Positions 6,621 to 63,180 of a stretch of DNA of 64,000 bases are shown in pieces. Location: NCBI GenBank assembly GCA_965644495.1, contig CBFFSA010000005.1:62001-126000 (forward strand), written 5' to 3'. The DNA comes from Perkinsela sp. CCAP 1560/9 (lineage: Eukaryota; Protista; Euglenozoa: Kinetoplastea). The translations under genes were made by a program, and so were the position numbers. The first letter of the stretch is position 1, and each line of letters begins with the position of its first letter. The notes beneath the pieces were generated by a model. That model was not told the origin of the DNA. It saw only the letters and a list, made by a program, of their open reading frames with translations, and made no database searches.

Positions 6621-6698
6621 CCGAGTGATGCCAATACCGGATTTTTCACGACACGAACTCTTTTACTTGTCTCTTCATCCTCTCTCCCCACCACCACC

Positions 6699-30100: not shown

Positions 30101-31025
30101 GAAACAATGTCTTTCGTGTTCAAAAGACCGTCCGAATCCCTCTAGTCACAGTACGAGTTCAAGCTCATCGGAGTCTGAATGGGAATGCCGTTGTGGTCAG
30201 AAAAATCCGTCGTCGTCGGCAGAGTGTTGCCTATGTAAAATAACGCGTGAGAAGAGTATTCAACGGCAGGACTGGGTTTGTAAATCATGCAGTTTTCCTA
30301 ATTTTGCATCACGCGCTGCCTGTAAACGGTGCTCGTTGCCAAAAGGGGATGAAAATGTCGAAGTAACTAAACTCGGTCCTGGTGCTCGAGATGGCGATTG
30401 GAGCTGTCGATTTTGCTCGTACAGGAACTTTGCTTCCCGGACACTATGTATGGCGTGTTCTACTCTGAGAACAAGTGATATTGAGGATTCGGATTCAAGC
30501 GCAACATCTACATGGGACTGTTTATGTGGAAATCAAAACTCTGATACAAGGAATGAATGTTCCAAATGCATGATGCCGAACCCGAGGAAGCAAATGTTCT
30601 TACCTGGATCCAAAAAAAAGTGGTCGTGTCTTCTTTGTGGATGGAGCAACTTCGCACATCGAGAGGAATGTATGAAGTGTCAGTCACCACGATCAGATGA
30701 AGGGAACATCGACGACGAACCGGTTTCCTCATCTGTGGATGGTACACTGGAAAGCACTAATTCAACTACTATTCGAACAGTAGACCAGTGCACCAAACCA
30801 GATGCAGTTGATTCCGATTCTTCAGTAGTCCGTTCCCACGAAACCCCGGAGGTTGGAATATCTGATTCAGATTCAAATGACAATGAAAGTGTAAGTCTAT
30901 CAAAAGCTACAAAAAAGCAATCAAAATCATCAGCGAAGAAGCCTAAGAGTCAGAAAAGGGACACATCCAAGTCCAAAAAAGTGAAAAAAGGTAAAAAAGA
31001 ACCCTTGACAACCTACGATTCGTAA
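27129..31025 (+). CDS. Protein with ~25 RanBP2-type zinc fingers
   Basis: Manual count of about 25 W-x-C-x(1,2)-C-x3-N-x6-C-x2-C units; many carry the RNA-binding NF(A)xR signature. Confidence 0.9.
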   Translation: MYRPVWTGPLSCLSRTSIHYQNTRSIWSSGKYLQQSFTQGTWEETKTSWACPLCNFMNYPNRLLCMKCQTRRGVQEPNTAFQEKPTAPEINLSVCKTVKRTGESKALKENTPTNQILQKNQNGTENSTWTCTCGSPNSTTSYSCSTCGKEPCILDDSPDLEIPLEEIETENAFTSILSPRTVQKDDELNCENRETLDLTNKNVEALECPDHAQHHKNVLKAGAAFSNEAKINGWICKCGALLFDEVYQCPNCSTKRAHGLLPKINQTGKFDNGEWICSSCRHINVAKALMCSKCPRDRVQGVPIRTTWLSANPFRKGNSESGAIRSSEKLEKKSDQRATNTDVNLPLQSTWYCFCGKANSSSTNTCQACDTAKMSAASQLGVQRSSHSNLNEELRDNTKATLSRNSTSGQQLNVEKWECEQCSFTNSGSDERCFSCSFQRAVEPASPSGTKETTLSWFCSTCTAENDENAQKCKACGAISSTQTERRLDWKCSVCRFVNFASRHECRVCLNPKLPKANSQDAWRCHCGQANSLTSTCTACHANKSSDLPIAAKEVSWKCVCGITNSMSALFCPQCGKSSAVGSVSRENVAPKMDWRCTCRAINFARRASCFRCGTARSADSPLVEYGTQPNNKMNWYCQNCHTFNFASRANCIKCRATSKDQCAPRTEVSEISCDCGYSSPTAFEICPQCSKTRKSMNTMCTSQDTDKRGELSYGDEADWTCICGCVNFSRQLQCLKCQNLRPTGTTPTAAINPANSMDDWHCECGMQNFAQRKDCFGCMKPRTSISAGDHVTMNVTEQARTMVRVSVEQRPGDWLCPSCRGLNFTSRKFCFRCNTAKTANDQSSLKDKGSSALNFAAKRLCKCGRVNKGNQDECFACRAKLPEVEDNSINQRHSLNTRAAQNTGRPGDWLCVCGYLNYRSRASCNKCALPQSSATTHISSASSSISVHGEWTCKCGALNFSRRNDCFKCSAPMAESTWTCTCGSHHDPRMKQCLSCSKDRPNPSSHSTSSSSSESEWECRCGQKNPSSSAECCLCKITREKSIQRQDWVCKSCSFPNFASRAACKRCSLPKGDENVEVTKLGPGARDGDWSCRFCSYRNFASRTLCMACSTLRTSDIEDSDSSATSTWDCLCGNQNSDTRNECSKCMMPNPRKQMFLPGSKKKWSCLLCGWSNFAHREECMKCQSPRSDEGNIDDEPVSSSVDGTLESTNSTTIRTVDQCTKPDAVDSDSSVVRSHETPEVGISDSDSNDNESVSLSKATKKQSKSSAKKPKSQKRDTSKSKKVKKGKKEPLTTYDS

Positions 31026-33349: not shown

Positions 33350-33626
33350 AGTTTTAATAAACTGAGTGGATTAGATGGATTCCGTAAATTGTATCTGTGA
33401 TCGGTAAAGGTTGATTTCGTAGTGGGAGGCGCAGAAATTGCAGTATTTCACACGTTCGGGAAGTAGGCGCGTAGTTTCAAGTAGTACAGTCACGGATTAT
33501 GGAAAAACTTAATAGCCTTATGAAAAGGTACGAATCAGTGTAAAGGCAGGATATATAGTGGGAGGTTCTGTCTGTGATTCTTGACATCGTTTTTATACTC
33601 TTTGATCCTTGCATATTTTAATTCTC

Positions 33627-34715
33627 ATGACCGATCTCAGTGATTTTCTGCAGAACTTATTCTCCGACGAGTACCTCTTTGATTCCGCACATGCTGCTTG
33701 GAGAGCTATGACGCAAAGAAATGAGGGTTGGATTTTGATATCACATTTTCTTACCTTTCCAGATGTGATGCAATTGTGTGAAAGTGTAGATGAAGTATTG
33801 GAGGCAGCCCGCCAGCTTGGCGAAACATTGGAGGTAAATCAGGAAGGAACCGCTATTCGAAGAAAAGATCCACTCCTTGAAAAAGACAATCCAGTACATC
33901 GGACACTCTTTGTGAAACCTATCCATCCTGATACGACAGACAAAGAAATAAAAAATTTCTTCTCCGTTTATGGTGTTGTTGAAAAAGTGGAAAAGAAGAT
34001 TTTCACAGAATATGACAGAAACACAGGTCAATCGAGTCAGCGAATACGTCCTACAATGCTGATTCAATTTTCTACAGTAGAAGAGGCGAAAAAATGTGTC
34101 AATGCTAAACCTTCGTTCGGGAAACTGAACAATATTGGAGATCATTTCGTCCCCAGACTTCACGTTGACTTCTTTTCCGACTATGATGAGAAGAAATCTG
34201 AATTAGCTGAAGCTCGTTTTCTAAAACATAAACGAGAGGTTCTTATACACGGTGGCGAGGCTACGAATGCGAAGTCCTCAACTCCAAGGCCTTTCAAGTT
34301 TGTACAGACGGGTTCAATACTAAAAGTTTTGAAGGGACCACCGGGGGTTAGTTGGCGAGAGATTAAAAGTGTGTTATCAGAGATCGGAGGTGATCAATGC
34401 CGAGTCTCGTACGTGCGCGAAGATGGAGAGTCCGGTATCACTTATTTATACATGAAAACTTCCAAAGCAGCCGAAACCCTCGTAGATTTACACCGAAGTA
34501 TTACAGGGACGGAAAGAGAACGAGTCTGTAGGATTGTTCCCGTTCTAGATATTTGTACTGGAGAAGAGGAGCAAGTCGCTTCCGAAGCTTATCTTGCGGA
34601 AGAAAATGCAAAAGCACGCAAAAAACATCACAGGAACGAAAAACGAGTTCACGGCAAAACAAATAGAGTAGCAGATAGTGGTCCTGCCACAGTTCTAAAT
34701 TTACCAAAGGTATAA
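33627..34715 (+). CDS. La-motif plus RRM RNA-binding protein
   Basis: LFSDEYL..EGWILI..FLTF..LEVNQEGTAIRR La motif, followed by an RTLFVK RRM and a second RRM-like segment. Confidence 0.8.
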   Translation: MTDLSDFLQNLFSDEYLFDSAHAAWRAMTQRNEGWILISHFLTFPDVMQLCESVDEVLEAARQLGETLEVNQEGTAIRRKDPLLEKDNPVHRTLFVKPIHPDTTDKEIKNFFSVYGVVEKVEKKIFTEYDRNTGQSSQRIRPTMLIQFSTVEEAKKCVNAKPSFGKLNNIGDHFVPRLHVDFFSDYDEKKSELAEARFLKHKREVLIHGGEATNAKSSTPRPFKFVQTGSILKVLKGPPGVSWREIKSVLSEIGGDQCRVSYVREDGESGITYLYMKTSKAAETLVDLHRSITGTERERVCRIVPVLDICTGEEEQVASEAYLAEENAKARKKHHRNEKRVHGKTNRVADSGPATVLNLPKV

Positions 34716-35145
34716 AAATTACACTGCTGTATCACAAGTCAGTGATCTGAGTGCGATGTTGTCATTGCGAAACATATCAATGCAAAACAATCATGGTCAA
34801 TCGTAACAAATTCGAGTGTTTCTATAAAGCGTTTCAAAAAAGTTCTCCACAGTTCACTAATTTAGTATGATGAATTATGGCGAATGGAAAAAATGTTTTA
34901 ACACAATGCAAGTTGTGTAGGTCTAAGCTAATATGCTATCTTGATATTTCTAATGCTTTGTATTTACCCTTCATTGGTTCCCGAGTAGTTTTTGTTAGTT
35001 ATAGAATACAAATGTCTCGTTTTTTCGCGGTAATACCATACTTTCTTGATGGTCATAGAACAGTTTTTGTATGCAATATCACCTTTACAAGGGCGAACAG
35101 CATTGTCAATTTCCTATTGTTTAACTCATTATTAAGACTATACAG

Positions 35146-36294
35146 ATGGACACGTCTTCGGAAAATAGCAGCCCCTTCGGGATCAATATTTCTGGAATAG
35201 AAGAGAAAGATTTGCGAAGATTACAAGAGCTAGAAGATGAATTGGATCAGGTTTGGAGCAAATCTTCTGGATACGCGATTGACGATGAGGCGTGGAAGAC
35301 TATGCCACTCTTTATGGAAAATATAACTGACAAGGACGTGGAGGAAAATGCCGCTGTCTGTGGATTAACAAATCTCATGTATGAAGACACAAATCCTGAA
35401 GATGTTGCTGAAAGGCTTAAGAATTCAGGAAATCAGAATTTAAGCGTCGGCATTAAAACAGGAAATTTAGAACTCTTTCGCTCAGCCGTGTCTTTCTACA
35501 CCGAAGCGCTATCTGTCGAAGGTGCAAGCAGATCACTTAGGTGTGCACTGTACTCCAATAGGAGTCAAGCTCATCTTTATCTCCAAAATAACTATTCCGC
35601 TTTGCTGGACGCCGAGAGAGCTATTTATATGAATCCCGAGCATATCAAGTCATACCATCGCGCTGTTCAGGCATGTGTTAGGCTTCGGCGCTACGAAAAG
35701 GCTTTGAAGTTCGCCGAAAATGTCTTTGAAAGGGAGAAGAATTGGGCAGAGTTTTCGAAAATTGAAGCTAAGATACAAGATCTTTTGAACTCTCAGAAGG
35801 GAAAGAAGGTTGCTATCAGTCGTACCTACACAGAACGACTAGAATTAGAAAATAGCCTAATCCGATACCTACAGGAAGAGCTCAAAATTAGAACCGCGGA
35901 TACCGATATGGAGAACTTGCCCTGGCATTCGGAGGGTTTGACCGTCCTTTCCGAACTTACGAAAGGCTGTAGACAATTTCCTATCTTGTTTCTTTATGAC
36001 GAATACGGTCAATGTGATTTTGTTCGTTCTGCCAATTGGGATACTACGCTACGTGACCACCTGGAAATGATACTCAGTGATCCTCCACCATGGGATACCG
36101 ACAAAAGGTACGCCAAAGTTGATTCACTAGCTGTCTTTAATCGCAACCCTGGATCTACGAATTATACAGAGATAAACACATTCTGTGATATTCGGAGTGT
36201 TTTACAGCAACGTTCATACGTCATGCCTAGATGGGTAGCAATATTCCACGTTGTTCCGAGAGGCTCTGAATATTTCATGAGATGGAAAAATTGA
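35146..36294 (+). CDS. CNS1: TPR Hsp90 co-chaperone Cns1/TTC4
   Basis: PLFM motif, three TPRs (KNSGN, LYSNRSQAH) and a FPILFLYDEYGQCDFV wheel domain. Confidence 0.88.
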   Translation: MDTSSENSSPFGINISGIEEKDLRRLQELEDELDQVWSKSSGYAIDDEAWKTMPLFMENITDKDVEENAAVCGLTNLMYEDTNPEDVAERLKNSGNQNLSVGIKTGNLELFRSAVSFYTEALSVEGASRSLRCALYSNRSQAHLYLQNNYSALLDAERAIYMNPEHIKSYHRAVQACVRLRRYEKALKFAENVFEREKNWAEFSKIEAKIQDLLNSQKGKKVAISRTYTERLELENSLIRYLQEELKIRTADTDMENLPWHSEGLTVLSELTKGCRQFPILFLYDEYGQCDFVRSANWDTTLRDHLEMILSDPPPWDTDKRYAKVDSLAVFNRNPGSTNYTEINTFCDIRSVLQQRSYVMPRWVAIFHVVPRGSEYFMRWKN

Positions 36295-37145: not shown

Positions 37146-38037
37146 TATTGCGGTGGTTGTAGAACTACCGCTCTACACTCGATTATTGAAAAAAAAGTGA
37201 ACAAAAACAGTGAAAATATAAAGGGGAACACAGTAATATAATAGAAGAAAAAAATATAAAAGGGGGCTCCGGTGGTCCAAAACTTAAAAAAAAAAATTGA
37301 AAAAAATGGGGGGTCCAGGGCGCGGGTCCAGGGGGGGTCATGGTCGAGCAAATTTTTTCGAAAAAATTAGTTTTCGAAAAAAAACCGCAGAAAGGGTAGC
37401 CGGGGTCTTGGCGCGCATTTTCCACCCCCCTACCCGGGGGTGACCCCCCCGGGTAGTATCCGCAGGACGGGTCCGCCAGGTTCGGATTTTTTCGGAAAAA
37501 TTTTTTTGAAAAAAATTTCAACTTGGCGAAAAAAATGGCAAAAAAAATATTTTTCCAAAATCGTTTCCCCTATTGTGTTTTGATAGTTTGGGACCTACAC
37601 TAGCTTTCTCCGCAGTTGCTTTTGCAAGGTATCCCTTCTTCTAACCGTGGTGCGCCCCTCAAAATGACCCATTTTTGACTAAAAAAGGTGAAAAAGTATT
37701 TTTCGGACCTAAAGGGGCATTTTTGTGTCGAAAGAATGGTATGGTTGGAGTCGCATTCTCTACCCAATACGTTCGGTAGGCTTTCATTCATGCCTACGAG
37801 TGATTTCCCATGCGCAAATATCGGATTTAGTACTCTGACAGCAAAAATACGCGAAAATCACCCCATATTTACCCGAAATTCGGCTATTTTTGGCTATAAT
37901 CTTTCCGTTTTCCAGGCTAAATTTTCTTTTTTAGGCTCTTCGTTAAGCGCGGCGGTAGTTTTCAACGCGAAGCGCGCAGCATGAGTGACTTCTAAGTTGA
38001 AAACAACCACCGCGTTTAACGAAGAGCCTAAAAAAGA
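37146..38037 (-). mobile_element. Family B copy 2
   Basis: Near-identical reverse complement of ~17085-18000. Confidence 0.88.
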
Positions 38038-38452
38038 TTGACTTGTATTACATGCCGAAACCCTCGTTTCGGCAGAATAACAATTCCAGTAACATGATTT
38101 ATGTATCGTCCGATGGAAGCAAAAAATATTGAGAAACTAAGGAAAAAAACATCGACGAAAGATATCCTAGGCGCTCCCGGGCGCTCCCAGACGCTCCCAC
38201 CCAGAGTCACCCCTCTCAATATCGTATTTCCTGTACTAGGCCCACTCTTTTTGAGATAATGCAAGAAGCTTTCTTTTTCTTGGGGACGAACTTTCATGTA
38301 TCAAACTTCAAAAAAAAGATGTACAGTACTTATTTTCTGTGGGACATGACCGAAAACAAACGTGCGAAACCCAATAGGCATTCCAGCGAGCTTACCCGGT
38401 AGATCTGCTAGCGGCTTCTTTGCCCCAAATCAACCTCTGACCCCCAACCTCC

Positions 38453-39964
38453 ATGCCCACCCACGCCGTTCTCTTCAGCGGCCAAGGCTCCCAACGCCAC
38501 CGCATGGGCGCCTCCTTCCTCTCCCGCCTCCCCCCCAAAAGCCCCTTCGCCACCACCTGGCAATCCGCCCGGGACTTTCTCAAAGACCACTACCAACTCG
38601 ACCTCAGCACCCTCGTCAACACCCCCACCCCCGCCCTCCACTGCCTCCACCCCGCCGGGGGCCCCCTCCGCAAGATCACCCACCCCCCCACCGCGCTCCA
38701 CTTCTCCCCGTTCACCCAGGTCGCCCTGGTCGCCTACCACGCGGCCTGTTGGCAGCAGCTCCTCCACCAGGGAGCCGTCGACCCGAGCACTACCTATCTC
38801 GCCGGCCACTCCCTCGGGGAGATCGCCTCGCTCTATGCCGCGAACGCACTCTCGCTCCCCCAGGCGCTATCCCTGGCCTACGAACGGGGATGGCTGATGG
38901 AGGAAACCGTCCCGCGAGACTCAAATGGGGAGACCCCGTTTCGGGTCTACGCGGTGAGCGCGGCCCGGTGTGGGCTCTCGGAGAGCACACTGCTGGGGCT
39001 CGTGGAGGGGCTGTCGAGGCCGCTGATGGAGGGGACGGGGGAGGTGCTGGAGGTGGTGGGGTATAATGTGGCCCATCAGCAGTACCTGGTGGCGGGCACC
39101 GTGAAGGGGTTGGCGGTGCTGGGGAAGGTGCTGGATCCGAAGTGGAGGGAGGGGAGGGAGGGGGAGGAGGAGGGGGTGGGGGTGAGGGAGACGGTGGAGG
39201 CGGTGTTGGAGAGAGCACTGCGGGAGGTGGAGCAGGATGCGGTGGAGTTGCCACGGCTTCGGGCGGCGTATGAGCAAGCGAGGGAGCAGGAAAGGTACCA
39301 GCCGGGGAGTCCGAAAATGGCGAAACGAAAAAACAAGTTTTTTCATATGGGCGTTCCGGCGAATCCGTTCTTGGATAACGTGGGATTTATTGTGCCTCCG
39401 GAGATAATCGAGGCTACGTTAGGAAGAGAAGGGCTGGCACGGGATGGGTTGAAGAGGAGACCGTGGTTTAAGCCCCTGGAGGGGGCATACCTTCCTTTCC
39501 ACAGTTCCGTGTTTAGAAGAGGCACCACTGCTTTTCAAGAGATTCTAGATAGATGCATGGATGAGTCAACGTGTGAGAAATCAAACTATTTACGTACCAT
39601 TCCTAATATTATGGGAAAACCTATATCGTGTGACGATCAATTCGTCTCGGATTTATGTGAGTGCTTGCGTATGGCCAATGTTGGAGAGCAGTGGAACGCG
39701 GGAAGGGCTGGGTACCCACCAACTACGCTTCCCTCCCCTAGTAAAAAGGTTTCGGATCTTATTCGTACCACCTTATTGGCACAGTTTTCGTCCGCAGTTC
39801 AATGGAGTGACACAATAGATTTCTTATTGGACCCCAAGGCTGCCAACGTTCAGTCAATAATTGAAGTCTCGCCGAGCCCTGTACTAGCTCCTTTGGTCAT
39901 GAAGCAGATAAAGGAAAAAGGGTGGAGAGACGTTCCTGTACGACAAGTGTCATTCACTGTCTAA
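38453..39964 (+). CDS. Malonyl-CoA:ACP transacylase-like protein (FAS-I MPT-type)
   Basis: LFSGQGSQ, FTQVAL, AGHSLGE, YN...QYLVAG, PFHS and AVQW. Confidence 0.88.
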   Translation: MPTHAVLFSGQGSQRHRMGASFLSRLPPKSPFATTWQSARDFLKDHYQLDLSTLVNTPTPALHCLHPAGGPLRKITHPPTALHFSPFTQVALVAYHAACWQQLLHQGAVDPSTTYLAGHSLGEIASLYAANALSLPQALSLAYERGWLMEETVPRDSNGETPFRVYAVSAARCGLSESTLLGLVEGLSRPLMEGTGEVLEVVGYNVAHQQYLVAGTVKGLAVLGKVLDPKWREGREGEEEGVGVRETVEAVLERALREVEQDAVELPRLRAAYEQAREQERYQPGSPKMAKRKNKFFHMGVPANPFLDNVGFIVPPEIIEATLGREGLARDGLKRRPWFKPLEGAYLPFHSSVFRRGTTAFQEILDRCMDESTCEKSNYLRTIPNIMGKPISCDDQFVSDLCECLRMANVGEQWNAGRAGYPPTTLPSPSKKVSDLIRTTLLAQFSSAVQWSDTIDFLLDPKAANVQSIIEVSPSPVLAPLVMKQIKEKGWRDVPVRQVSFTV

Positions 39965-44875: not shown

Positions 44876-45021
44876 GGGAGCATACCGTTTAAGTGCCTAG
44901 ATTGCCTGGTCACATTCCTGCGCTCATATTTTTAAGATGCGCAGCTTTCATAAAATGTGCAAATTTCTAGTACTAACTTTTAGTCTACGAAAGTCGCTTA
45001 TAGTATTATAATTTTTCAAAT

Positions 45022-45589
45022 TCTTTTTTAGGCTCTTCGTTAAACGCGGTGGTTGTTTTCAACTTAGAAGTCACTCATGCTGTGCGCTTCGCATTGAAAA
45101 CTACCGCCGCGTTTAACGAAGAGCCTAAAAAAGAAAAATCTCCAAAAGATCATGAATAATCCATTTTTTTGGGGGAAAAAGCTCGATTTTTCGACAAAAA
45201 TTGCGAAATTTTACACCATTTTTGGGCCGTTTTGGATGCCTTACCAGTAGGAGAAGGAGTCGAATCTGTCGACAAAAACGTCGTAGAATGGTAGCTGAGG
45301 TCCAAAACTCTCCAAATACGGTTTAGGAGTCGATTTTGGAAAAATAATATTTTTACTTTTTGGGTCAAACGTTTTTTTTTTGGTACCCCAAAAATTTCGG
45401 AGTTTTTGACCTTGTCGGACCCCTTCCGCGCGTACCAGAGGGGGGTACGCCCAGGTGTGGGGGGGTGGAAATTCATCGCCGCGGCTTACTCTACCACTTC
45501 CCCGCGCTCGATTTCGAAAATCAAGATTTTGAAACGACGTATGCCCCCTGGACCCCCCCTGGACCCCCCCCCCCCATGGACCCCCCATC
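45022..45589 (+). mobile_element. Family B-related element, 5' part, interrupted by an SL-headed retroelement
   Basis: Same left hairpin as 17085-17200; internal part similar to 62940-63130 (reverse complement); breaks at GGACCCCCCAT. Confidence 0.8.
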
Positions 45590-45590
45590 T

Positions 45591-45624
45591 TTAACGATAA
45601 AGATACAGTTTCTGTACCTTGTTG
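45591..45624 (+). other. Spliced-leader exon relic
   Basis: TTAACGATAAAGATACAGTTTCTGTACCTTGTTG is identical to 51257-51290; flanks are unrelated; no GT follows. Confidence 0.9.
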
Positions 45625-47540
45625 AATCCTTTTTCTTTTCTCTACCTCTACTCTTCTCTCCCCCCGATACATGCCCACGACACGACGTCGACGAGGCTAC
45701 CGGGGGCGCAAGGATTCACCCGGTGGGCCCGATTCCCCACCTACCTCGACCTCAGGGGGACGCTCTACCACCCCTCTCAGGCGAGGTTCTAGCCCCCACT
45801 TCTCCACCGAGACTGTGGGGCTACACCAGCTCTCTATCGAGGAGCTGAAGAAGGCGAGGCCGGACCTTGAAGTCCGTGCAAAGACCCCTTTCAAGTCCCG
45901 CGCGTGCGACTTCTGTGGCCTCCCTTTTGTGCCCGCCAGGCGGGATATGTGCTTTTGTGATGCGTGCATTTCCCTTCGAGCGCAGCACAGAAAAGACCTT
46001 CGCGCGCGTGCGAAGACGCAAACCCCCGGGATCCCTCCTCCCCTCTCTGCTTCTTCTCCTAGGTCCTCTCGACACCGGTCGGTAACCCGAAGACCCCCGC
46101 GCTCCATCTCTCCTCGGAGCCGCTCCCGGAACAGCGATGGCCCGCCACCCGGTGAGCGGTCGTTATCCCTACCCACAATGGCACAGCAGTTCAAATCCAT
46201 GGACGCTGTCCGCCTCAAGCTCCTTCCTGCCCGAACCGGCTCAAATCGCTTTTCCGCGGAGACAGGAAGATGCGCAGTCACCTTATGGCTGGCTGTGACC
46301 CTAAGCGCCGAACACGACGTAACATCAATGATGGAGAAAGAGGCCCGTGAACGTCGGGCCCTTACACTCGAAGCCGTTTGGACGCTGCACGACACCCACA
46401 AGTCCATCGAGGAGCGTATCTATCTCATTAATGAAGGGTGTCTGGTTGGCTCCGAATGCGGCATCGCACTCTTCAGCCGCACATTGTTGCCCTCCAGGCG
46501 CATCGCATCAAGGTGCACGGGCCGAAACGCCTAAGGGTTGCGTCACGGGCCCTGCTTCGGGAACACGCCCCGGAAGCCCTCAGGAACAAGGCCGATCGCT
46601 TCTCCTCCTTCATGGCTCTATATGAGGAGTTCTGCACGATGGAGGCCCACCTCCAAAGGGCACAGGCGAGTGCGATGGCTGGCGACCCACCCTGGCCCCA
46701 GCCCACCTTTCGTTCTCCCCCTCTTCCCACACCTTTCCCTGGGATAGCGACGAAGCTAATCCCCTCGCAGGCTACACCTGCACCGCCAACCAATCCCCAG
46801 GTCGACTCTGTTTCAGAACCCTTCAAGATCCTGCTTGATCTTGGGCCGGAGTGAGCCGGATATGCCACTATCCCCTGCCCCCCGGACTCCTCTTTCCAAG
46901 CTTTCCTCGGCACAGTGGGGAACACTTTAGGGGTCCCTGGGGAAAATCTCCTCCTCAAAGACAGTGCTGGCGAAACCACCCCTATCACAGATCGGGAGGG
47001 CCTAGATCGCGCTCAACGAGTAGCGGTCAGCCTGTCCCTACCTCCGTACAACCCCCGTAACAACGAGGAGGCCGTTATTCGGGTGTACGATGGATCCATG
47101 CACGGGTTCATCAACGCCCCCGGACTGCAGGCAGCCCACCACATCCCGGCCGGTCTGAGTGAGATTCTCGGTATTCCCCCAGTGCTGACTGGAGCTTGGA
47201 AACCTCGTGAATACGAGGAGGGCGTGCTATGGTGTTTCCTCCCTACAGAAACCCTAGTCAGCGAAACGGGATGGACCACCCGGGTTGTCAAATGCAATCT
47301 ACGCAGGGGATGCATCGAGGCAAACCCTGGCCCCAGACACAAGAACCGAGGGTCGCTGGCCTCATCCGCGCCCCAGCCCCGGCAGGCACCGAGCGAGACT
47401 CCGAGTGCCCTCCTCCAGGAGCCCGACACCTCTTCCCCCAGCAGGGAAGGAACTATCATGGATGGAATCGCGGCTGTGACTTCTCCGCAACACCCTCCTC
47501 TCCATGCATCTTCCTCCCATGCTCCTAATAAAAGAATTGA
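45591..47540 (+). mobile_element. 3'-truncated SL-headed CRE-type retrotransposon (ORF1-like region only)
   Basis: Frameshifted ORFs 45671/46438/46915 with a C4 finger, a C2H2 finger and a 2A-like peptide, collinear with 51331-53022. In-frame TGA at 46852. The 3' boundary is approximate. Confidence 0.8.
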
Positions 47541-49716: not shown

Positions 49717-49769
49717 AAAACAATAGGACTTTGGTTGATTGTATAAAATTACCGCAGAAACACTTATTA

Positions 49770-50147
49770 CTGTACCCCCCCCCTACTTATCTGTCACTAC
49801 TTTTCGCGAAAAGGTGACAGATAACTAGGGCGGTAGGGGTGTGACAGATAACTAGGCGGATCAGTGTGCGACAGATAACTAGGGAGGGGGTCTGTCACAA
49901 AAAAAAGTCAGAACATGGAATTACAGAAACGGTTTATAATAGCACCACGCACGACTTTTGCTTGAAATACAAAAAAAAAGAATGTAAGTTTCATTTCATG
50001 ACCTTTTTTGGAAAAAAGTATTTTACCTATTTTTAAAAAGCGACAGATAACTAGGGGGGGCAGTCGACCAAAAAAAAATCGAAGTGTCAAAAAGTGACAG
50101 ATAACTAGGGGGGGTGATGTGTGACAGATAATTAGGGGGGGGTACAG
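49770..50147 (-). mobile_element. MITE family F, complete copy
   Basis: TA|CTGTACCCCCCC ... GGGGGGGGTACAG|TA with GTGACAGATAACTAGG repeats. Confidence 0.9.
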
Positions 50148-51253: not shown

Positions 51254-51290
51254 AACTTAACGATAAAGATACAGTTTCTGTACCTTGTTG
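51254..51290 (+). other. Full-length spliced-leader exon copy (37 nt)
   Basis: AACTTAACGATAAAGATACAGTTTCTGTACCTTGTTG shares the AAC start, AACG, ACAGTTTCTGTAC core and TTG end with trypanosomatid SL (AACTAACGCT...ACAGTTTCTGTACTATATTG). Confidence 0.9.
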
Positions 51291-53180
51291 ATTTATTTCC
51301 TCCTTTCCTTCACTACTACTTCTCCCCCCCATGTCAGAACTCCCGCTCAAGGGACTCTTGTTCTGCGCTTACTGTGGCTCGAAATTCGAACCACTCTCCC
51401 CCACCCACCGGTTGTGCCCAGTCTGTTTATCCACAACCGGCACTGCGTCCCGTATCATTTGGGACAAACCTAGCACCCTTGGGCCCGTTAACAACGGACT
51501 CAGGCAGACATCCACCTCCCGAGAGGCCAGAAGCATCCCCCAGAAGCATCCCCCAGAAGCATCCCCCAGAAGCTCGTCCTCCCGCGCGAGGTCGAACTCG
51601 AGACCGCCCCTTCACCGACAGTCCGAAGGACCTCACACACGCTCGCCATCCAGTGTATCTTTCGCCCCCAGGAACACTTCTTCACATGACTCCGAGTCAT
51701 ACGCCGACAAGGCCAAATCCCTTTCACCCCCGATTCTTAGGAAAACAAGGTTAGGTACAGATCCCCCCTCAAACCTCTACACCCCTTGGCAGAGCCCCAT
51801 CACTCAAGGAACAGCTAGCTCTCATAGGTAAGATGAACCAGGATTTCCTGGGTATCTACATCAAACACCAGCGAGACGACGGAGTGCCCTTCGGGTTGAA
51901 GAGGGAAGTGACAGCCAACCGGCTGTCATGCGCCGTCCGAGAAATAGAGAGAGAGTACCTGGCGACGAGGGATGCCCTCTACACCGAGTGGCTTGACCTC
52001 CTCTGTCAGGACGCCCGTCAGGAATACAGACATCGCCAGCTTGTCATAGACAAAGCCCACCTGTGTCAGACCTGCGGACAGGTTTTTCGGGACCAGCGAC
52101 GTATGATCGAGCACAAAACCGTCCACGAAGTGGCCGCGGCCCGGGCGATGGTATCCCGTCTCTCATCAGAGCACCGCCAGGGAGCTATGATGATTGCGGA
52201 ACAACAGTGGGCCTCTGCCGCCGACCTCTTCAGCCATCTCTACCAACAACTCCAAAACCTGTACGCACCCCCCCGGCCCCTCCCCCGACCCCTCCCCCAG
52301 CCCCTCCCCCGGCCCCTCCCCCGGCCCCTCCCCCGGCCCCACGGAAACGTACAACTTGGAAGTGGACAACCCTCCCCCCCCACCTTGCCGCCAAACCTCC
52401 CGCCCTCACAAACACCCCAACCGACGCCCCTAGCGGCCCTTACCCATCACCTCCCCACCAGCAAGGCGGACACCAACTCTCATCTTCGACGCAACCCTCC
52501 GAAGAACCATGGACTAGGGTCAACCTGCACCTCGGACCCCACTTGGCCGGACACATCCAGGTCCCCGTCCCTGCCAGACACCCCCTACAGAGTTTCGTAC
52601 AAGCGGTGGGCTTTACCTTGGGGGTCCCCCCCGACCGCATAAGCCTGACCAACGAGCCGGGAGGGCCATACCTGGTGACCGATGAGGACCTGGAAGAGGC
52701 TGAGTGCATTTGGGCCTCTCTGCTCACTCCAAACCACGGCCCCTCCCACGGTCCCCACGTCAAAGTCTTCGACGGATCGGGAGCAGGAGCAAGCATAGAG
52801 ACGCCGTCTAATCTCCCAGGCGAACATATCCCCTTTTCCCTATGCCACGCCCTGGGTGTAGCCCAGTGCTTCGCAGGAGCCTGGACGCCGTTCGTGTCGG
52901 AGGGCGGAACGGCTTGCTGGAGCTTCACGCCCACGGAGGGACTGATAGCTGACTCGGGGTGGTCGGCCGAGTTAGTCCGGTGTAACCTCCGTAGAGGGTG
53001 CATCGAAGCCAACCCGGGACCACGCCGCGCAAAACGGAAGAATAAAACGCCCAAATCCTCCGGCCCCGCGGACAGTAACCCCGTGAACGTAACGGGACAG
53101 ACGAGCACTCAAACCGAGGACACCCCCACCCCACTACCCGACCCCCACATTACAGACCCCATTCCCACACCCCCGCATCA

Positions 53181-53570
53181 GGGGGGGGCATGCCGGACGC
53201 CAGCGAGGATTGCGCCGAGGCTGGCAGCCTCAGAGCGGGCCCGTATCCAAAATCCCATTGTAATGGGGGGTCCATCCCGACACACAACAGCCTGTCCTCG
53301 GGCCCTAAGTCCACATCCCCTGTTCTGGGGGGGCCATGCCGGACGCCAGCGAGGATTGCGCCGAGGCTGGCAGCCTCAGAGCGGGCCCGTATCCAAAATC
53401 CCATTGTAATGGGGGGCCCACCCCGACACCCAACAGCTTTTCTTCGGGCCCTAAGTCCACATCCCCTGTTCTGGGGGGGCCATGCCGGACGCCAGCGAGG
53501 ATTGCGCCGAGGCTGGCAGCCTCAGAGCGGGCCCGTATCCAAAATCCCATTGTAATGGGGGGCCCACCCC
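53181..53570 (+). repeat. 146-bp tandem repeat (~2.7 copies) inside the retroelement
   Basis: Identical ORF starts at 53190, 53336 and 53482. Confidence 0.92.
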
Positions 53571-53719
53571 GCACTCTCGCGGGACCCTGATCGAGCACAT
53601 CGCGGCGGCCGCCAATGTGCCCAAAATTTCTCAGCGGACGACGGGAGAGGGGGGGACATCGGAGGTGGGGGGGTGTCTTCCACCACACGAAGCAAGCAAT
53701 CCACCCCGACAACCCAGGG

Positions 53720-55859
53720 CATACCTATGTGTTCTATGAACACTTTTTTTTGTTCATTGAACACATAGAACGCATTGAACACTTTTTGGGGAGGTACACA
53801 TCACACGAACATGTCGATTATTATTCATAAAACCTTTTTGTTTTGCGCATATCCAAGTGATTACACATGCCCTAGCTATGCAGTATAAGAATGCCGCGGT
53901 ATGAGGTTCTCTCTTAGTACGCGTGGCAGCTTTTTTTGTACTCGCCGAACGTAATGCATTTCTCATTTCAAAATATTTTGCTGTTGTTGTTGCAAAAAAC
54001 TATTGTTTCCCTCATTTAGTCAAGCATTATCTATTACCCTCAACAATTTCTAATGAGAGGACGAGGTCCCACAGGAACCTTTCGTGCCCGTCGAAGAAAA
54101 ATGGGAAGCCACCAATCCAAATACAAAAATAAATCCAGTATCCAATATGACCGACTTAAAGTCGGTTAAAAAGCTTCACACTTTCACCTTGAAAGCTTTC
54201 ATCTATGACTTCCAAGTTCAGAGTTTATATTTGTCTGATACGGTACAAACAAACAATATTTTTCCCATAACCTACAAATAATCCTCAAGGTATTCAAAAT
54301 TTGCAAAGATACAATTCCATCAATTCTTTCCTTACGTAGACGGTTTCCTATTACCGCCAGTTCTCGCAACCTTACCTCGAAGCACACTTCGTACCTCAGC
54401 TTCGCGCTTGGATGCCGGAATGTCTCGCGCTGGCCCATTTCCAAGGGATTTCATTTTGAGTAAGGCCTTCAAAGACCATAAAGGCTGTGAATTCTCCTCA
54501 TTTTCCGAGTTGTCAGTTGTTTTTCTCCTTTTTGGTATCGGAAGCCGATCCACTTTCATGCGAAACATAAATAATATACCATCAGCCTCACTTTCATACG
54601 AAACACAAGCCTTTATAAAATGATCACAGACGAATCCAATGGCTTGGGCGCTTAAAAATTATTCAAAAAGTGTGTTCAAAAATTAGTAATTTACGAGTGG
54701 ATTATATTACGGTTACAGTGTTGTATTTAATTACGGTATTACTTAATTACGCTTTTAAGGTAAGCGTAATTAAATAATACCGTAATTAAATATAACACTG
54801 CAATCCATTTGCACCCCAATCCATTTCCATGGGGAACCACCCTCTCGAATGCGGTATTATTTTCCGAAATTGAAAAGTTTTTGCAAATTTTAGACCCCCT
54901 CCCCAGATGGAAATTTTCACCCCTGTATAAGCCTTTACTTATCCGATGTGTACAAAACGGTCTCGTTTGCCCCAAAACGTAAATACCGTATCGACAATAC
55001 GGTATTAAGCTTTGACTCTCGCCTTATGCAGTGTATAAAATCGAACGGCGAAAAAATGACTAAATGGTAATTCTTCTCTAAAATATACGTATTCGCTTCT
55101 TTTTGTTTCGTTTCTTCACGCGCAAAGTCTTTGTGTTGAGATCTGCAAAATGCTACAAAAATCAGCTCAAACGGATGCTTGTACGAAAGAAAAAGTGGTG
55201 GGTCACTTTTCATTGGGTGGGGTTTATGAACGCTTTCCGTGGTGGAGGGTGTTTATCGTCATGAAAGGCTCAATACAAAGGCAATGCTCTTCACCTGCGA
55301 CTTGAAGAATATGATAGCCACGCTAACAAAGCAGCGAAAGACTTGGAGCGCTTTCATGGCCTGCTTCTGAATAGAAACCTGGGTCCAGATGAAAAAAAGA
55401 AAGTACTCGATACACTTGTGGGTGAAAGGGGACTTTTCAAAGAAAAAACCTGAATTTTTTTCCTCATCTTCGTTGTCGTCATTTCCACTAAACATTCTTT
55501 TTGCACTGTGAACACATTATATGCATTAAAGAAGTTTGTGTGCCGAATTGATTAAACGCCTAACACGTGTTAGGACCAACCTAACTGGGGGTTGGGGCCT
55601 CTTCGTGGTCCCCCTTGACGCTGGAATCATATCGATGGCACAGACTCGCACCACCTATTCTGCCATGTACCTACATGTACGTGAGGATCTAGGTCGTGTA
55701 GTACCATCTGGGGCCATTTGAATGAAACAAAGCTTCAAAAAAAAATTGTTTGTACTTCAGGAAAAAAAATCGAAAAAGTGTTCTATTGGTTCATAAAAGT
55801 GTTCATTGAACCATAGAAACACTGAACACACACAAGTGTTCATAGAACACATAGGTATG
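53720..55859. mobile_element. TIR DNA transposon inserted in the retroelement
   Basis: TIR CATACCTATGTGTTCTATGAACACTT at both ends; CCAGGG duplicated on both sides; GAACAC subterminal repeats. Confidence 0.9.
54716..54800. repeat. 85-bp near-perfect palindrome (mini-MITE)
   Basis: CAGTGTTGTATTTAATTACGGTATT ... AATACCGTAATTAAATATAACACTG with a paired interior. Confidence 0.85.
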
Positions 55860-55949
55860 CCAGGGCGCTCCAGTTGAGGAGCGTGGGCAAGCCCCTTCCC
55901 CCGAAAACTTAGCACAGCTCCTTGGGAGGGGGTCCTTACGTAAGCTGTA

Positions 55950-58249
55950 CGCACTCCAATACCCGGCTTGGAAGGAATACACCGCCGGTGTATGCCATGA
56001 TTTTATTAACAAGTCAGTGGAGGGCAAGGTCGAGATGGCCTGGAACCTCCTCCTCGCCGTTAAACGTTTCCTTTTTCTCCCCAAGGACAAGCTGTCGCCA
56101 CGCCAGCTAGCGCGCGAACTGAGAATGCGTGCCCATCTAGAGGGTTCGGAGACCTTGACTCCATCCCCGAGTCAGGCCAACGGCCCCCCGTGGTCTGTCA
56201 AAAACGGGTCGAGGAATTGTGCAGGGCGGGTTGCTTCTCCAGGGCGGCCAAAACGATGGAGGCGCCCCTCAATCCTCCGGCCAACCCCACGGCGGCCCTA
56301 GAACAGGCTAAGCGTCCACACCCCACAGGCGGGCTCTACACTGCGGGGAAATTCAGGTACAATAGGGACCGACACGGAACCCTACCCTCCCCAGCCGATG
56401 TGGCCAGGAAGGCTCAAAGCCTGGCCCCTATCCGCGCCCCCGGACCTACGGGATGGACCAAGGAACTGCTTGTCCCAATCCTCATGGAAGATGGACCCCG
56501 CGACTGTATCACGTGGATAATCCACGGGATAATGACTAACTCCCTCCCCCCCTCAATGAGGGAACTGCTCACGGGGGCGTCTTTAAAACTATTCACCAAA
56601 CCGGACTCCCCGGCGGGGCGCCACTCTTCCTACAGGCCCGTCGCCATGGGAGGGTGCATCCTCAAGGTGGCGGGGCTCCTTGCCCTGGATGAAATCCGGG
56701 AACATCTCCCCACTTACTTTCAGGGCATCTAGTTTGGAGCCCAATACACGCAGGGGTGTGAGCACATAATTTATAATGTGCGACAGCACTTCAGGGACAG
56801 GCCGAAGGAGGTCATCGTGGCTGCAGACCTCGAGAACGCTTTCAATAGCATCTCACGGTCGGCAATTTTTAGGGCGGTAAGGGGGGATCCGAAACTTCTC
56901 CCCATTGAGGGCATCACCCTTTTCAGCTACGGTACCACAAGTACCCTTCACCTTGGGGAAGGCCAATGCATCACGAGCTCAAGGGGGGTCAAGCAAGGTG
57001 ACCCCATGGCTCCCATCCTATTTGCCATAGGGATCCAGGGGGCAATCGCCAGAGTGGCGGCCAACTTCACAGGTGCGCTGAAGGTCTGGGCGTACCTAGA
57101 TGACGTCACCTTTGCTGGTGAACCCAAGGTTTGCGCGGAAGCCCTAGAGGCCCTCCGCGAGGAGCTGAAGCATCTTGGGCTACGGCTAAATACCGCTAAA
57201 TGCAAAGTAACTACTAGACGCGAGGACCTCTTCTCCGAGTTCTCCGGATCTCGCATGGTCAACTCCCCCGGGGGGTCAAACTACTGGGGTCAAACTTCGT
57301 CGGGGTGTCGGAGGCTAGGGAGGAAGAATGGGTGCTTTCCAAGGCCCCCAAGGTAATCTCCTTCCTGGGGAAACTCAAGGACATTAGCAGGCAATGCGCC
57401 TTGCCCCTCTTAAGACTCTGTGAGAGTCCTCGATGGAACTGCATCGTAAGGACCCACGAGCCCCGGGTCACTAAAGTGGCCAATACCCAGGTCGACAAAG
57501 CTGTCCTGGCATCTGCTGAGGCCTTGCTCGGGGGGATGGGCTCCTTGGGAAAAACGCCGTTCTCCAATAACCTTTTCACGGCAGATTTCCTGGGGACCAT
57601 CCCCTTCGAGCACAAGGCGGAAGAAATACAGGCCAAGGCGAAGAACGCCCTACAGGGCCGACCCCAAGGCATGTCAGCCAAGGAACAGCGGCGCAACCTC
57701 TGTGAGGCCGCGTTGGGGAAAGCTCCGACGGCTACCCAACTGGTCTGCATGCGACAGACCCAGAACATTCACTCCACTAAGTGGGTGAACGCATGGCCCA
57801 ACAGGCCGGAGTATTACATGCGGGACCCGCAGTGGGAGACTGCGGCCCGTCTCCGGTACTTGGTCGCCGGGGGCCCGACATATGCTTCCAGCAGGGACGG
57901 AAGACCGCCCAAGTTGATGTCACAGTTGTGAACCCACTGGCCCCGTCCTACGTGGAGAAGGAGGCCGCAGAGCCTTCTCATACCCTGAGGATGGCCGAAG
58001 CGGCGCTCACACGATGAGATGGCGACCGCCTGAGGGAAGGAATTTTACCCCTTGGCCTTCACCACGTACGGGATCCCGGACCCAGAGACCTTGAACTTCC
58101 TAACCAAGGTGGCCCGGGCCCACACATCCGACAAGAACGGATGCATGTCCCACCTTCTGATGGCCATAGGGGTGGCCATCCAGAAAGGTAATGCCCAGAT
58201 TGTACAGGCGGCAGTACAAGACTGGTACCGCCGCGGGGTACGAGGCTAG
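55950..58249 (+). pseudogene. Reverse transcriptase plus restriction-like endonuclease (CRE clade), frameshifted
   Basis: RAPGPTGW, YRPVAMG, *FG..GCEHII, DLENAFNSISR, GVKQGDPMAPILF, AYLDD, GLRLN..KC and PDI..VDVTV..PLAFTTYG. In-frame TAG at 56730. Confidence 0.93.
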
Positions 58250-59037
58250 CTGGGCGATGGGGTTTAGGGAGAGGGAAAAAAATGTAATTATAATTATAAT
58301 TACTTATGGATGTGAAACTGGTGAACCTGGAGGGGAGTAAAAGTTGTTATATTAGATACTTGCCATCACAATTTCACAAATAAGCGCTTCAAATAGATAA
58401 TCGTTCTAATCCTACGTCAGTAAGGTTATCAAGCTCATGAGGCGTGTATGTTCTAGTGATTCTTCGGAACGTATATTGTTGATCACTTTGCCAAATTGAG
58501 TTTCTAGAGCGTCTGTAATTGTTTGACGTAGAACGCATTCGTGCTCAAAAACGAGTTCATTGAACTTAAGAGTTTCATCCAGAGCGTGCTCTCAGTCACT
58601 TTCACTCATTTCGAAAATGGGGCGAAACCAGAGAACTTTTTTCTCAACCTACCTTTTCGATGGTCTAACAACAACCGAAGTAAAGTCCACGAGAAAAATG
58701 GCCGTTGTGGCTTGCACAAGTTGTCACTGGCTTGCAGTGGCAGTACGCATGAGGTCCATTAAGTAGTGACAGGAAAGTAGTGACAGGAAAGTAGTGACAA
58801 GAAAGTAGTGACAGGATCTTTTTCCTAAAACAAAAAAAATCCAATCGGTCGAAGTTGCATTTATAATTACTTATGAAAGACATAGGAATTATAAGTCATA
58901 AGGGAGTAAAAGTGCGAGTTCAAGGCGTATTTATAATTACTTATGGAGGGGGGAGTATACAGAGGAGTTTATAGAAAATCCTTTTTAAAAAACTTGAATA
59001 TTACCGTATATATTTTCAGAAGAAAGAATGTTTATTG

Positions 59038-60116: not shown

Positions 60117-61056
60117 ATTATCACCACCTACGTAAACACGCTAGATACCGGTTCCAAGCCCGGCGTCGCTTCGTTGATACCTAGTATCATTGAAGCGAAG
60201 TGTGAGGAAGATAGGTGGACCCATTGAGCGGAGAACCGCTATACGACGCAAACTTTAAGTTTACGCATTGAAAGAATGGAAGGAGAGAAAGAAAGACACG
60301 GAAAGCAAGGAAGAGAAGGAATAAAGGAAGGAATGAAGGAATGAATGAACGAAGGAAAGAAAAAATGAAGAAATGAATGAATGAAAGTAGGAGAGAAGGA
60401 AAGAAAAAAGAAAGGAGGGGAGAGATAGATAGCAAAAGATGGAGACAGTGAGAAAAAACGAAAGGGAAAGAAGCGAGGAAAAGAAAGAATGTGACGGAAA
60501 GCGAGAAAGCAATGGAGAGAATGAATGGATGAATGCAAGAGCGAAGAAAAGAATGGAAACGCATTGAAAGAATGGAAGGAGAGAAAGAAAGACACGGAAA
60601 GCAAGGAAGAGAAGGAATAAAGGAAGGAATGAAGGAATGAATGAACGAAGGAAAGAAAAAATGAAGAAACGAATGACTGAAAGAATGATAGAAAGAATGA
60701 GAAAGAAAGAAAGAAAGAAGGAGAAAGAAAGAAATAAGGAGAAAGAAAGAAAGAAAGAAAGAAGGTGAAAGAAAGAAAGGAGAAAGAAAGAAAGAAAGAA
60801 GGAGAAAGAAAAGAGAAAGAAAGAACGAAGGAGAAAGAAAGAAAGAAGGAGAAAGAAAGAAAGAACGAAGGAGAAAGAAAGAAAGAAGGTGAAAGAAAGA
60901 GAGAACGAGAAAAAAAGAAAGAAACAGAGAGGGAGAGAGAGGGAGAAGCAAGCAAAAGAGAAAGAGAAAGAGAGAGAGAGTCAACAGCCCCAAAGGCATG
61001 CCTGTCACCCTCCGGCCTGGAACCAGTATCTAGGTGCATACGTAGGTGATGATAAT
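60117..61056. mobile_element. Element with ~45-bp imperfect inverted ends enclosing a GA-rich simple-sequence tract
   Basis: TATCACCACCTACGTA..CTAGATACCGGTTCCA pairs with TGGAACCAGTATCTAG..TACGTAGGTGATGATA; internal GAAA repeats and a ~110-bp duplication. Confidence 0.65.
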
Positions 61057-62488
61057 GTGAGGGTTGGTAGTCCTAATCTGGGCTTACCCAGAGAGGGTCC
61101 ACCAACCCGTCATTATCGCGGCGCAGTAGACGCGCCATGGCAGGCCAGGCACCATGAAGGCCAAAAAAAAATGTTTTGACAACACCGGGCTTGAAACCCG
61201 GCCTGCACCAAAATCCGAAAACTAATTCGGCGGAATTCAAGCAGATTCGATAGAGCGTGGAGCCGCTGTTTGACATAGCGTGGAGCCGCTCGCATGGAGT
61301 GTGGAGCCGCTGTTTTAGCAGCGTGGAGCCACTCATGCTGATTTGATAGAGCGTGGAGTCGCTGTTTGACATAGCGTGGAGCCGCTCGCATGGAGTGTGG
61401 AGCCGCTGTTTTAGCAGCGTGGAGCCACTCATACTGATTTGATGGAGCGTGGAGCCGCTGTTTGACACAGCGTGGAGCCGCTCGCATGGAGTGTGGAGCC
61501 GCTGTTTTAGCAGCGTCGAGCCACTCATACTGATTTGATGGAGCGTGGAGCCGCTGTTTGACACAGCGTGGAGCCGCTCGCATGGAGTGTGGAGCCGCTG
61601 TTTTAGCAGCGTCGAGCCACTTATACTGATTTGATGGAGCGTGGAGCCGCTGTTTGATATCGCGTGGAGCCGCTCGCATGGAGTGTGGAGCCGCTGTTTT
61701 AGCAGCGTCGAGCCACTCATGCTGATTTATAGGAGCGGAGATCCGCTGTTTGATACAGCGTCGAACCGCTCGCATGTAGTGTAGATTCTCGCCGTTTCTG
61801 CAGCGTCGAGCCACTCATGCTGATTTGATGGAGCGTAGATCCGCTGTTTGATGCAGCGTCGAACAGCTCGCATGGAGTGTAGATCCGCATGTAGCGTTGA
61901 ATCAGTCGCGTTGATTTGATAGGGAATGTGGCGTTTGATACAGAATATGACCGGTAGTAGGGTACTGCCTCTCGTGGAATTGCAATGGAGCGTGTGACGG
62001 CAGTTGGATACAGTGTCGGTCTGGATGACTACAGTTCCACGTGTGGACTCTGACTCGCTTTTATTATTACGTTTTGGATACGCCATACCTTTTGTAAGTG
62101 TGGTATCCCTGCATCATAGATGATGCGTAAATTAGTGGAACCCTAAATGACCAGTGCCATTGAGTCGTAGTTACTCGTTTAGTGGAGGGTTTCTAGGTTT
62201 TAATGGAGCGGCCTTTCCTAGAGTAGTTCCACTAGTAAGAGTAGTAAGAATGCTAATTCAGTATAGATTCCTAGTAATACAAGTAGAGACTAGTTGAAGT
62301 AGTACAGTTCTGTATAGTTCTGGTGGTTTAAACGTGTGTATATGTGGGGTTGCCGTCCGAATAATTAACGTCTGAATAAATATTCTAAGAATGATGGTGT
62401 GCTCGGCTTCATTCATTGAACCGCCGTGATAATGACGGGTTGGTGAACCCTCTCTGGGTAAGCCCAGATTAGGACTACCAACCCTCAC
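61057..62488. mobile_element. TIR element (~67-bp TIRs) carrying a 96-bp minisatellite
   Basis: GTGAGGGTTGGTAGTCCTAATCTGGGCTTACCCAGAGAGGG... at both ends, inverted; AAT on both sides. Confidence 0.88.
61249..61890. repeat. 96-bp tandem repeat (5 conserved plus ~2 diverged units) built of GTGGAGCC subunits
   Basis: Units start at 61249, 61345, 61441, 61537 and 61633. Confidence 0.92.
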
Positions 62489-62764
62489 AATATTGCCCTT
62501 CTTTTATGGCCAAAACCTCTAGGTAAAGGGGATTAGAGGTAAAAATGACACAGACACTGTAAAGAAAAAGGATCCGTTGAATTTTCATCACCAATGTTTG
62601 GTTGGTGCCAGGAGTTCTGTATATCGTCAGTAGAATACACTTTTTTAGATACGTCTTCCTCAACAACTTCCATGTTGGCATTGGCTTCCTTGTTGAGGGA
62701 GACACTACTCCCTCGCTGCCCTATATTACCGCCTCCCTATTTACTACTGCGCTCATAAGTAATT

Positions 62765-63180
62765 TGTTGTGGTGGTTGTATAACTACCGCTCTACCCTCG
62801 ATTATTGAAAAAGTGAACAAAAACAGTGAAAATATAAAGAGGAACTCAGTAATATATTCGAATAAAAAAATGTAAAAGGGGGCCCCGGTGGTCCAAAACT
62901 GAAAAAAAAATAAAAAAATGGGGGGTCTAGGGGGGGTCCATGGGGGGGGGCATACGTCGCAAGTTTTTTTCGATTTTTTTGCTTTTCAAAATCGATCGCA
63001 GGGAAGTGGTAGAGTACGCCGCGGCGATGATTTTCCACCCCTCCCCACCTCGGGGTGATCCCCCCCTGGTACGCACAGGAGGGGTCCGATAAGGTGAAAT
63101 TTTCCGAAAATTTTGGGGTGACCAAAAAGGGGGTATGAGGGCACTTCCCCTGAGTGGTCATCAAGGTGCCCGCGTGTCAA
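62765..63180 (-). mobile_element. Diverged family B-related element, 3' part
   Basis: GGTGGTTGTATAACTACCGCTCTAC end hairpin and the following AT-rich block match 37146-37330. Confidence 0.8.

Follow-up and report, generated by a model that had tools for sequence, protein, structure and literature searches.

A putative StopGo/2A-type peptide in frame between a zinc-finger/β-grasp region and the RT of RLE-type, likely CRE-clade retrotransposons

The window (the whole stretch of 64,000 nucleotides that was analyzed) contains two copies of a 14-residue peptide which, judged from its sequence, is genuine, under selection, and of StopGo type, its host clade and its position both being new; it probably serves to split a zinc-finger/β-grasp protein from an RT-RLE enzyme. 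The peptide CNLRRGCIEANPGP of element A (positions 47293 to 47334, plus strand), identified by translation and codon comparison, recurs in element B (52981 to 53022, plus strand), where it also matches the StopGo core and reads CNLRRGCIEANPG/P, with the predicted skip point between Gly (53017 to 53019) and Pro (53020 to 53022). Retranslation and codon comparison confirmed what the earlier note on this DNA had reported: all 14 residues are identical at both sites although 11 of the 14 codons differ, by 11 nucleotides, all of them synonymous. Silent changes of this kind speak against a recent gene conversion; they favor selection on the peptide, as had been proposed. Upstream of it, only 52 of 143 aligned codons (36%) are identical between the two copies. 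Under an iid model, a run of at least 14 identical residues anywhere in the domain has P = 6.5e-5 at 36% identity and P = 0.0044 if 50% identity is assumed. Identity between the families of A and B is 36% (56/154) in the upstream domain, compared with 71% (254/360) in the RT part. NPGP was found at these two places only when the whole window was read in six frames. The alignment of relatives extends the conserved stretch to ~35 residues ending at the last Pro (52918 to 53022 in B and 47230 to 47334 in A, both on the plus strand), with (S/T)GW located 20 to 22 residues upstream. Two further statements held in part: the flanks, described as strongly diverged, are so downstream (9/34 alignable), whereas the upstream side is a homologous domain of ~155 residues with 36 to 38% identity; and a position between zinc finger and RT applies to copy B, but copy A ends ~190 nt past the motif, without an RT in the window.

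Element B (51257 to 58287, plus strand), delimited by contigs and comparisons, is a near full-length, decayed RLE-type non-LTR retrotransposon. Its empty site is represented by contigs of runs X1 and X2, which join 51259 to 58288; no clear target-site duplication was found in its AT-rich flanks, and the element sits in an AT-rich dispersed repeat. The N-terminal coding region (51331 to 52130, plus strand) comprises C4 zinc-ribbon-like, S/R-rich, and C2H2-like segments with Pfam matches below the cut-offs (E = 0.035 for the C2H2-like finger) and, relative to the homolog P0038, is frameshifted once, close to a C run at ~51764. The peptide is followed by an internal tandem repeat recognized by self-comparison (53165 to 53571, plus strand) with a unit of 146 nt; in the siblings P0002 and P0030 the unit spans 49 codons (147 nt), each B unit being 1 nt short and carrying a G run, and a contig of run X3 shows a G insertion at 53326 within the repeat. 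Between peptide and RT, B is split by a nested 2.1-kb, TIR-bounded, DNA-transposon-like insertion (53718 to 55861, no strand assigned) with an apparent 2-bp AG duplication, as defined by contig joints; contigs of X1, X2, and X3 skip 2146 nt here. The TIR of this insertion begins with GGCATACC, and read depth indicates that it is multi-copy; in the accessible part of PMC12278014, DNA transposons are described as absent in trypanosomatids, with Merlin known in Bodo and Perkinsela. Next follow the RT N-terminal extension and RT domain (55862 to 57290, plus strand; PF00078 at ~56757 to 57215 with E = 3e-17, YLDD at 57093), which contain frameshifts and one premature stop, and thumb/linker and RLE remnants recognized by sibling comparison (57266 to 58246, plus strand), with a short RLE piece at 58018 to 58245 and the CCHC knuckle and RHK part of the siblings deleted at ~57868. 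Element A (45591 to 47526, plus strand) is the 5′ part of a second family with its 3′ side cut off; it appears to be inserted in one of several ~900-nt MITE-like repeats with terminal hairpins (17085 to 18000, 37146 to 38037, 45021 to 45590, and 62763 to 63128). Both copies are decayed, and B carries several frameshifts near G or C runs; the frameshifts in the window may reflect decay or assembly error, the contigs being without coverage of the first G run after the motif.

Both elements begin with a spliced-leader-like sequence on the plus strand, a 37-mer in B (51254 to 51290), located 40 nt before the first ATG at 51331, and a counterpart in A (45591 to 45624), 46 nt before the first ATG at 45671. 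A 16-nt leader pattern gave two exact matches in the window plus a third with one mismatch, compared with 0.05 expected. The empty site of B lacks the leader, which therefore travelled with the element; its source may be trans-splicing or transcription inside an SL gene array. No SL sequence was found at the 3′ flank of B, and B shows no site-specific SL RNA gene insertion with a target-site duplication; other copies may lie in the SL array. An Rfam scan returned no SL or ribozyme match, its three weak matches being below the gathering score. A third leader-like fragment (252 to 293) is 5′-truncated and has no RT match behind it in tblastn; it is possibly a retroposed mRNA or a short element. 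The leader-like sequences resemble the Perkinsela SL primer of PMC5601477, a source that, in its accessible part, also associates SL fragments with retrotransposons and shows the ingi 2A.

The window carries long uninterrupted ORFs, mostly on one strand. One encodes a Rieske protein whose best PDB match is 8iuf, which we take to be a Euglena entry; these features and the leader-like sequences suggest a euglenozoan host, probably a kinetoplastid. A 1303-aa ORF at 27114 to 31025 consists of many W-x-C-x2-C...N...R-x2-C-x2-C repeats, presumably RanBP2-type zinc fingers. A second dispersed repeat family with a GTGACAGATAACTAGG unit occurs in inverted copies (1888 to 2348, 6307 to 6620, and 49768 to 50145). 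A 96-nt tandem repeat (61141 to 61888), which on the minus strand reads without stops as 32-residue units, adjoins a GA-rich tract (60255 to 60995), and a 72-nt inverted repeat flanks it (61052 to 61123 and 62422 to 62493). The GC content of host genes on the same strand, in 2-kb windows, is ~55 to 61% at 6621 to 7601, 13196 to 15031, 20785 to 22218, and 38441 to 39964, compared with 41 to 43% at 33606 to 36294.

The position of the peptide, its conservation, and its sharing of one frame with the RT are apparent from sibling proteins. Motif and RT are combined in a single chain in P0009, P0046, P0019, and P0025, and likewise in P0002 where it overlaps P0030; in P0049, P0054, and P0073 the motif shares a chain with the RT N-extension. 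Specifically, P0009 (733 aa) is 93.6% identical to window copy A over residues 1 to 296 (46639 to 47526) and then continues as one chain into the RT, via a linker that is missing from the window and is matched by P0054 and P0073. In the family of B, P0002 extends from the zinc finger past the motif into the 49-residue repeats; P0030 and P0032 lead from these repeats through the RT to the RLE. P0046 represents a third, distant family, 23% identical upstream, in which finger, domain, motif, and YLDD (residue 860) lie in one 962-aa chain. The siblings are unnamed gene calls with signs of spliced or altered models in P0001 and P0030; their collinearity with the window DNA argues against false introns over the tested stretch. 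An intact copy with the motif out of frame to the RT, which the earlier note had named as evidence against its proposal, was not encountered in P0009, in P0046, or, by overlap, in P0002 plus P0030. The in-frame position between two domains of one ORF is thus seen in the siblings, the window copies themselves being broken.

To survey relatives, upstream domain plus motif served as a phmmer query, a choice that favors matches retaining the motif. The search yielded 34 matches, of which 16 were kept as related and 18 dropped as unrelated multi-repeat proteins (3 of the 18 were inspected). The site is covered by 10 of the 16, and all 10 have the motif, 7 with an exact core; LxRG(G/C)(I/V)ExNPGP is kept down to 21 to 25% upstream identity. 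Scanning 16 sequences with the regex RG[GC][IVL][EK]xN, whose columns are conserved by construction, returned 18 instances from 15 of them, with the consensus (S/T)GW-x8-L-x-R-G-(G/C)-(I/V)-E-x-N-P-G-P. Outside the regex, the consensus residues hold in most instances (W and L in 17/18 each, P in 16/18, G in 14/18, and the final P in 17/18), and right after the final Pro conservation drops, every column reaching at most 8/18. Position p12 is C in 10 and G in 8 instances, the regex having admitted only these two; p13 is I or V in 17/18, and p15 is free. The core is exact in 12 of the 18 instances and broken in 6. In P0044, P0052, and P0074, just the last ~25 to 40 residues are duplicated in tandem, one copy of each pair being exact. 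Two contigs (X1 record 7 and X4 record 19) match the motif alone, with unrelated flanks; one continues NPGP, and the other, diverged, seems to encode Arg in place of the final Pro. In a further contig, the motif is deleted amid other indels. The broken-core instances and the contig with Arg are, in our reading, probably dead or redundant copies. In a subfamily with 83% identity, 9 amino-acid changes fall within the 18 codons after the site and, among the rows listed, none affects the motif's last 10 codons.

A 2A core is also found at a comparable place in a distant RLE element, where P0019 and P0025 have RLLREGIEANPGP upstream of the RT in a different upstream context. In the RT tree, whose rows are all unnamed, the two stand beside the window lineage with weak support (85/75); their 2A may be of common origin or an independent gain. 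Among 21 RT-search matches, NPGP is present in 2 (P0009 and P0019), with many of the others beginning too near the RT to tell, and a 2A survey of long CRE-like proteins found none among those of 3386 to 5000 aa. A degenerate DNA pattern for GCIEANPGP had one match among JGI metagenome contigs, located after a stop in a bacterial-looking contig and taken as chance. A single genome, or closely related strains, may be the source of most relatives, which would then not be independent species.

The octapeptide CIEANPGP fits the expanded StopGo core (D/G/C/N)(V/I)ExNPGP exactly, with a chance expectation of 1e-6 to 2e-5 per protein. As described in the accessible part of Li et al. 2026 (PMC12846837), the core was widened to this form, the rotavirus C variant is ~90% active, the dataset includes CIEANPGP itself as well as LQRG-CVELNPGP and LIRG-GVERNPGP (the latter labelled motif 5), and the assays covered upstream motifs other than motif 5. 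Within the accessible parts of that paper and PMC12338488, C at p12 was assayed in the rotavirus context only; the Cys variant that the earlier note had mentioned for a rotavirus is real and was active in assays. There is an apparent match between LIRG plus GIE of the relatives and the viral row labelled motif 5, a label seen for the G version. The peptide is therefore closer to canonical than had been described, C at p12 being within the published expanded core and the LxRG pattern occurring in viral motif 5. The older strict core D(V/I)ExNPGP is not matched, p12 being C or G in 18/18 instances of a search that admitted only these. Class B 2A requires a Trp at position 16 (Rao et al. 2025, PMC12338488, whose accessible part does not list a GCIE peptide); the peptide described here lacks it and has a conserved Trp at position 21. 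A Klebsormidium protein in Table S2 of the same source (rows A32179 to A32180) contains LLRGGVESNPGP twice. The core by itself is described as insufficient for an active 2A (PMC3708506, accessible part), and for a 2A peptide in one kinetoplastid an efficiency of >80% is given in the accessible part of PMC10830525. In the AlphaFold model, the motif lies in a low-confidence tail (residues 165 to 178, pLDDT <50).

In the StopGo mechanism that we favor, the ~35 residues ending in NPG would act within the ribosome exit tunnel, and the ribosome would skip the Gly-Pro bond, so that one leader-capped mRNA would give two proteins. An N-terminal protein of ~560 aa, composed of zinc ribbon, C2H2-like finger, and two β-grasp-like units, would be released, and translation would restart at Pro to yield an RT-CCHC-RLE enzyme of ~1000 to 1200 aa, predicted to start with Pro and a basic segment and, in some families, an RGRP stretch. 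RGRP directly follows a motif copy, close to the predicted enzyme start or at it, in P0044 (residues 143 to 152), P0046 (402 to 411), and P0049 (339 to 348); we take this stretch to be AT-hook-like, and no paper on AT-hooks of RLE elements turned up in a literature search. Speculatively, the N-terminal protein could be a counterpart of ORF1p, acting in RNA packaging or as an oligomer, and ribosome drop-off at the site could keep the enzyme scarcer than its N-terminal partner. Drop-off is central to an alternative that we consider unlikely, namely, that the peptide is a 2A-family stalling element that causes mainly drop-off, with less RT-RLE and little clean skipping, and thus works as an attenuator. 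The conservation pattern fits this reading equally well, 59 to 70% of the tested retrotransposon 2A-like peptides gave reduced abundance rather than clean skipping according to the accessible part of 10.64898/2026.06.17.732966, and Luke et al. (PMC3894237, accessible part) argued that 2A lowers ORF2 output. However, the former source ties the reduction class to Leu-rich N-termini, a feature absent from this peptide; moreover, the site lies ~560 codons into the ORF, behind folded domains and where one domain borders on the next, a place that suits release of a separate product, and the final Pro is retained in 17/18 instances.

Upstream of the peptide, AlphaFold predicted for the conserved domain (52498 to 52935, plus strand) a β-grasp unit of ubiquitin/PB1/CIDE-like type with a confident model (Z 7.9, rmsd 3.1, 73 aligned), followed by a weaker β-grasp-like unit (Z 5.2, rmsd 2.8, 63 aligned); with both Z values below 8, the models speak for a common fold, not for function. 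Structure matches include ubiquitin, ISG15, and PB1; Pfam gave no match to the domain, and all Atlas matches were below 0.9. The predicted β-grasp fold and these matches would also suit an LxRGG placed after two ubiquitin-like units as the target of proteolytic cleavage by a deubiquitinase or Ubl protease of the host, with NPGP being incidental, and RGG, which is the ubiquitin tail motif, is present in 8/18 instances. We nevertheless regard such a protease site as quite improbable: 10/18 instances, both window copies among them, have RGC; RG lies ~20 residues and two predicted helices past the last β-grasp strand, and GG does not directly follow that strand as it would in a Ubl modifier precursor; (I/V)ExNPGP is conserved beyond RG, and viral StopGo cores are also preceded by LxRG(G/C); and the tandem duplicates come without a Ubl unit. 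Very little weight is given to the reading that the protein stays uncleaved and the residues serve its structure or binding, the 2A likeness being a convergent chance product. Conservation does reach back over ~35 residues as far as the second folded unit, and the motif-containing query favored motif-keeping matches, yet the low chance expectation of the core, variation that follows StopGo tolerance, the placement in a low-confidence tail, and the core in the distant RLE element P0019 with its different upstream context all argue against it.

The elements are RLE type and likely of the CRE clade, CRE membership being suggested by motifs. Behind the RT, a CCHC knuckle and a PD-(D/E)xK-type RLE were found, with the pattern C-x-C..H..C..RHK..E..PD..D in P0003, P0030, P0032, and P0033 and the full CCHC-RLE end in the first three of these. 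The best PDB matches of the RLE siblings are R2 proteins (E = 9e-9), and no APE match was obtained with Pfam among nine segments scanned. YLDD, RPIAMGE, and DxxNAFN are, we assume, CRE-like; a literature search for them as CRE traits returned nothing. Relative to the SLACS/CRE RLE consensus in the accessible part of PMC12857005, the motif order is kept, while spacings and RHK/GPD deviate, a loosened regex having been used. Three traits of trypanosomatid CRE elements, i.e., a single ORF, zinc finger(s), and internal repeats, were found.

Retrotransposon 2As have so far been placed in APE clades and framed as a trait of these, mostly near the N terminus, and the ancient RLE clades have been described as encoding one multifunctional protein (Odon 2013, PMC3708506; Luke 2013, PMC3894237; both in their accessible parts). 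The earlier note knew of no 2A case in the CRE clade, and our literature search, with subscription papers and Repbase reports mostly outside its scope, likewise found none in CRE or other RLE-only elements. The accessible part of 10.64898/2026.09.24.754024 reports ~580 RT-element contigs with 2A, clades not being named; its supplements and those of 10.64898/2026.06.17.732966 may hold CRE-type cases. A broader interpretation, which we advance tentatively and hold to be rather doubtful, is that StopGo is an old device of a CRE-type sub-lineage present in several host groups, the ancestral single ORF giving a polymer-forming β-grasp/zinc-finger analogue of ORF1 and an RT-RLE enzyme with an AT-hook-like start; the oldest non-LTR branch would then have arrived at the ORF1/ORF2 split independently, by means of a new GW-x8-LxRG(G/C) 2A class. 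An internal StopGo in RLE-only elements would mean that these, too, can make a separate N-terminal protein, with a bearing on the origin of ORF1/ORF2 stoichiometry. The peptides, which have C or G at p12 as well as a distal GW, would also be natural variants of the motif 5 class; they can be tested directly against the structural model of 2026, and short 2A tools for kinetoplastids might be made from them.

Viral StopGo, represented by CIESNPGP of rotavirus ADRV-N/B219 (accessible parts of PMC12846837 and PMC12338488), shares with these peptides the core with C or G at p12 and the LxRG upstream; unlike viral StopGo and class B, the peptides described here lack Trp 16, have (S/T)GW 20 to 22 residues upstream, and belong to a cellular retrotransposon. 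With L1Tc/ingi of Trypanosoma and the ingi of Perkinsela (PMC3708506, PMC5601477, and Table S2 of PMC12338488, in their accessible parts) they have in common a 2A-like core in frame with the RT and euglenozoan hosts; L1Tc/ingi belong to the APE type and carry a Leu-rich GD(V/I)xxNPGP peptide 40 to 80 residues from the N terminus, whereas the elements here are RLE type, with an internal peptide (at ~560 aa) of the LxRG(G/C)(I/V)E type. SLACS, CZAR, CRE1, and CRE2 resemble them in having a single ORF, N-terminal zinc finger(s), internal repeats, an RT, a C-terminal RLE, and an association with the spliced leader; the accessible part of PMC12278014 describes no 2A for the trypanosomatid CRE clade, and, unlike those four, B has the leader at its 5′ end only, without the remainder of an SL gene at its 3′ end. 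The accessible part of 10.64898/2026.06.17.732966 describes 2A-like peptides in Dualen/RandI of Haematococcus and, in Cordylochernes, between ORF1p and ORF2p, so that both the presence of 2A within an RLE-bearing clade and the polyprotein order ORF1-2A-ORF2 have a precedent. Dualen also has an APE (PMC3708506, accessible part), of which the present elements show none, and their N-terminal portion consists of zinc finger and predicted β-grasp, not of coiled coil-RRM.
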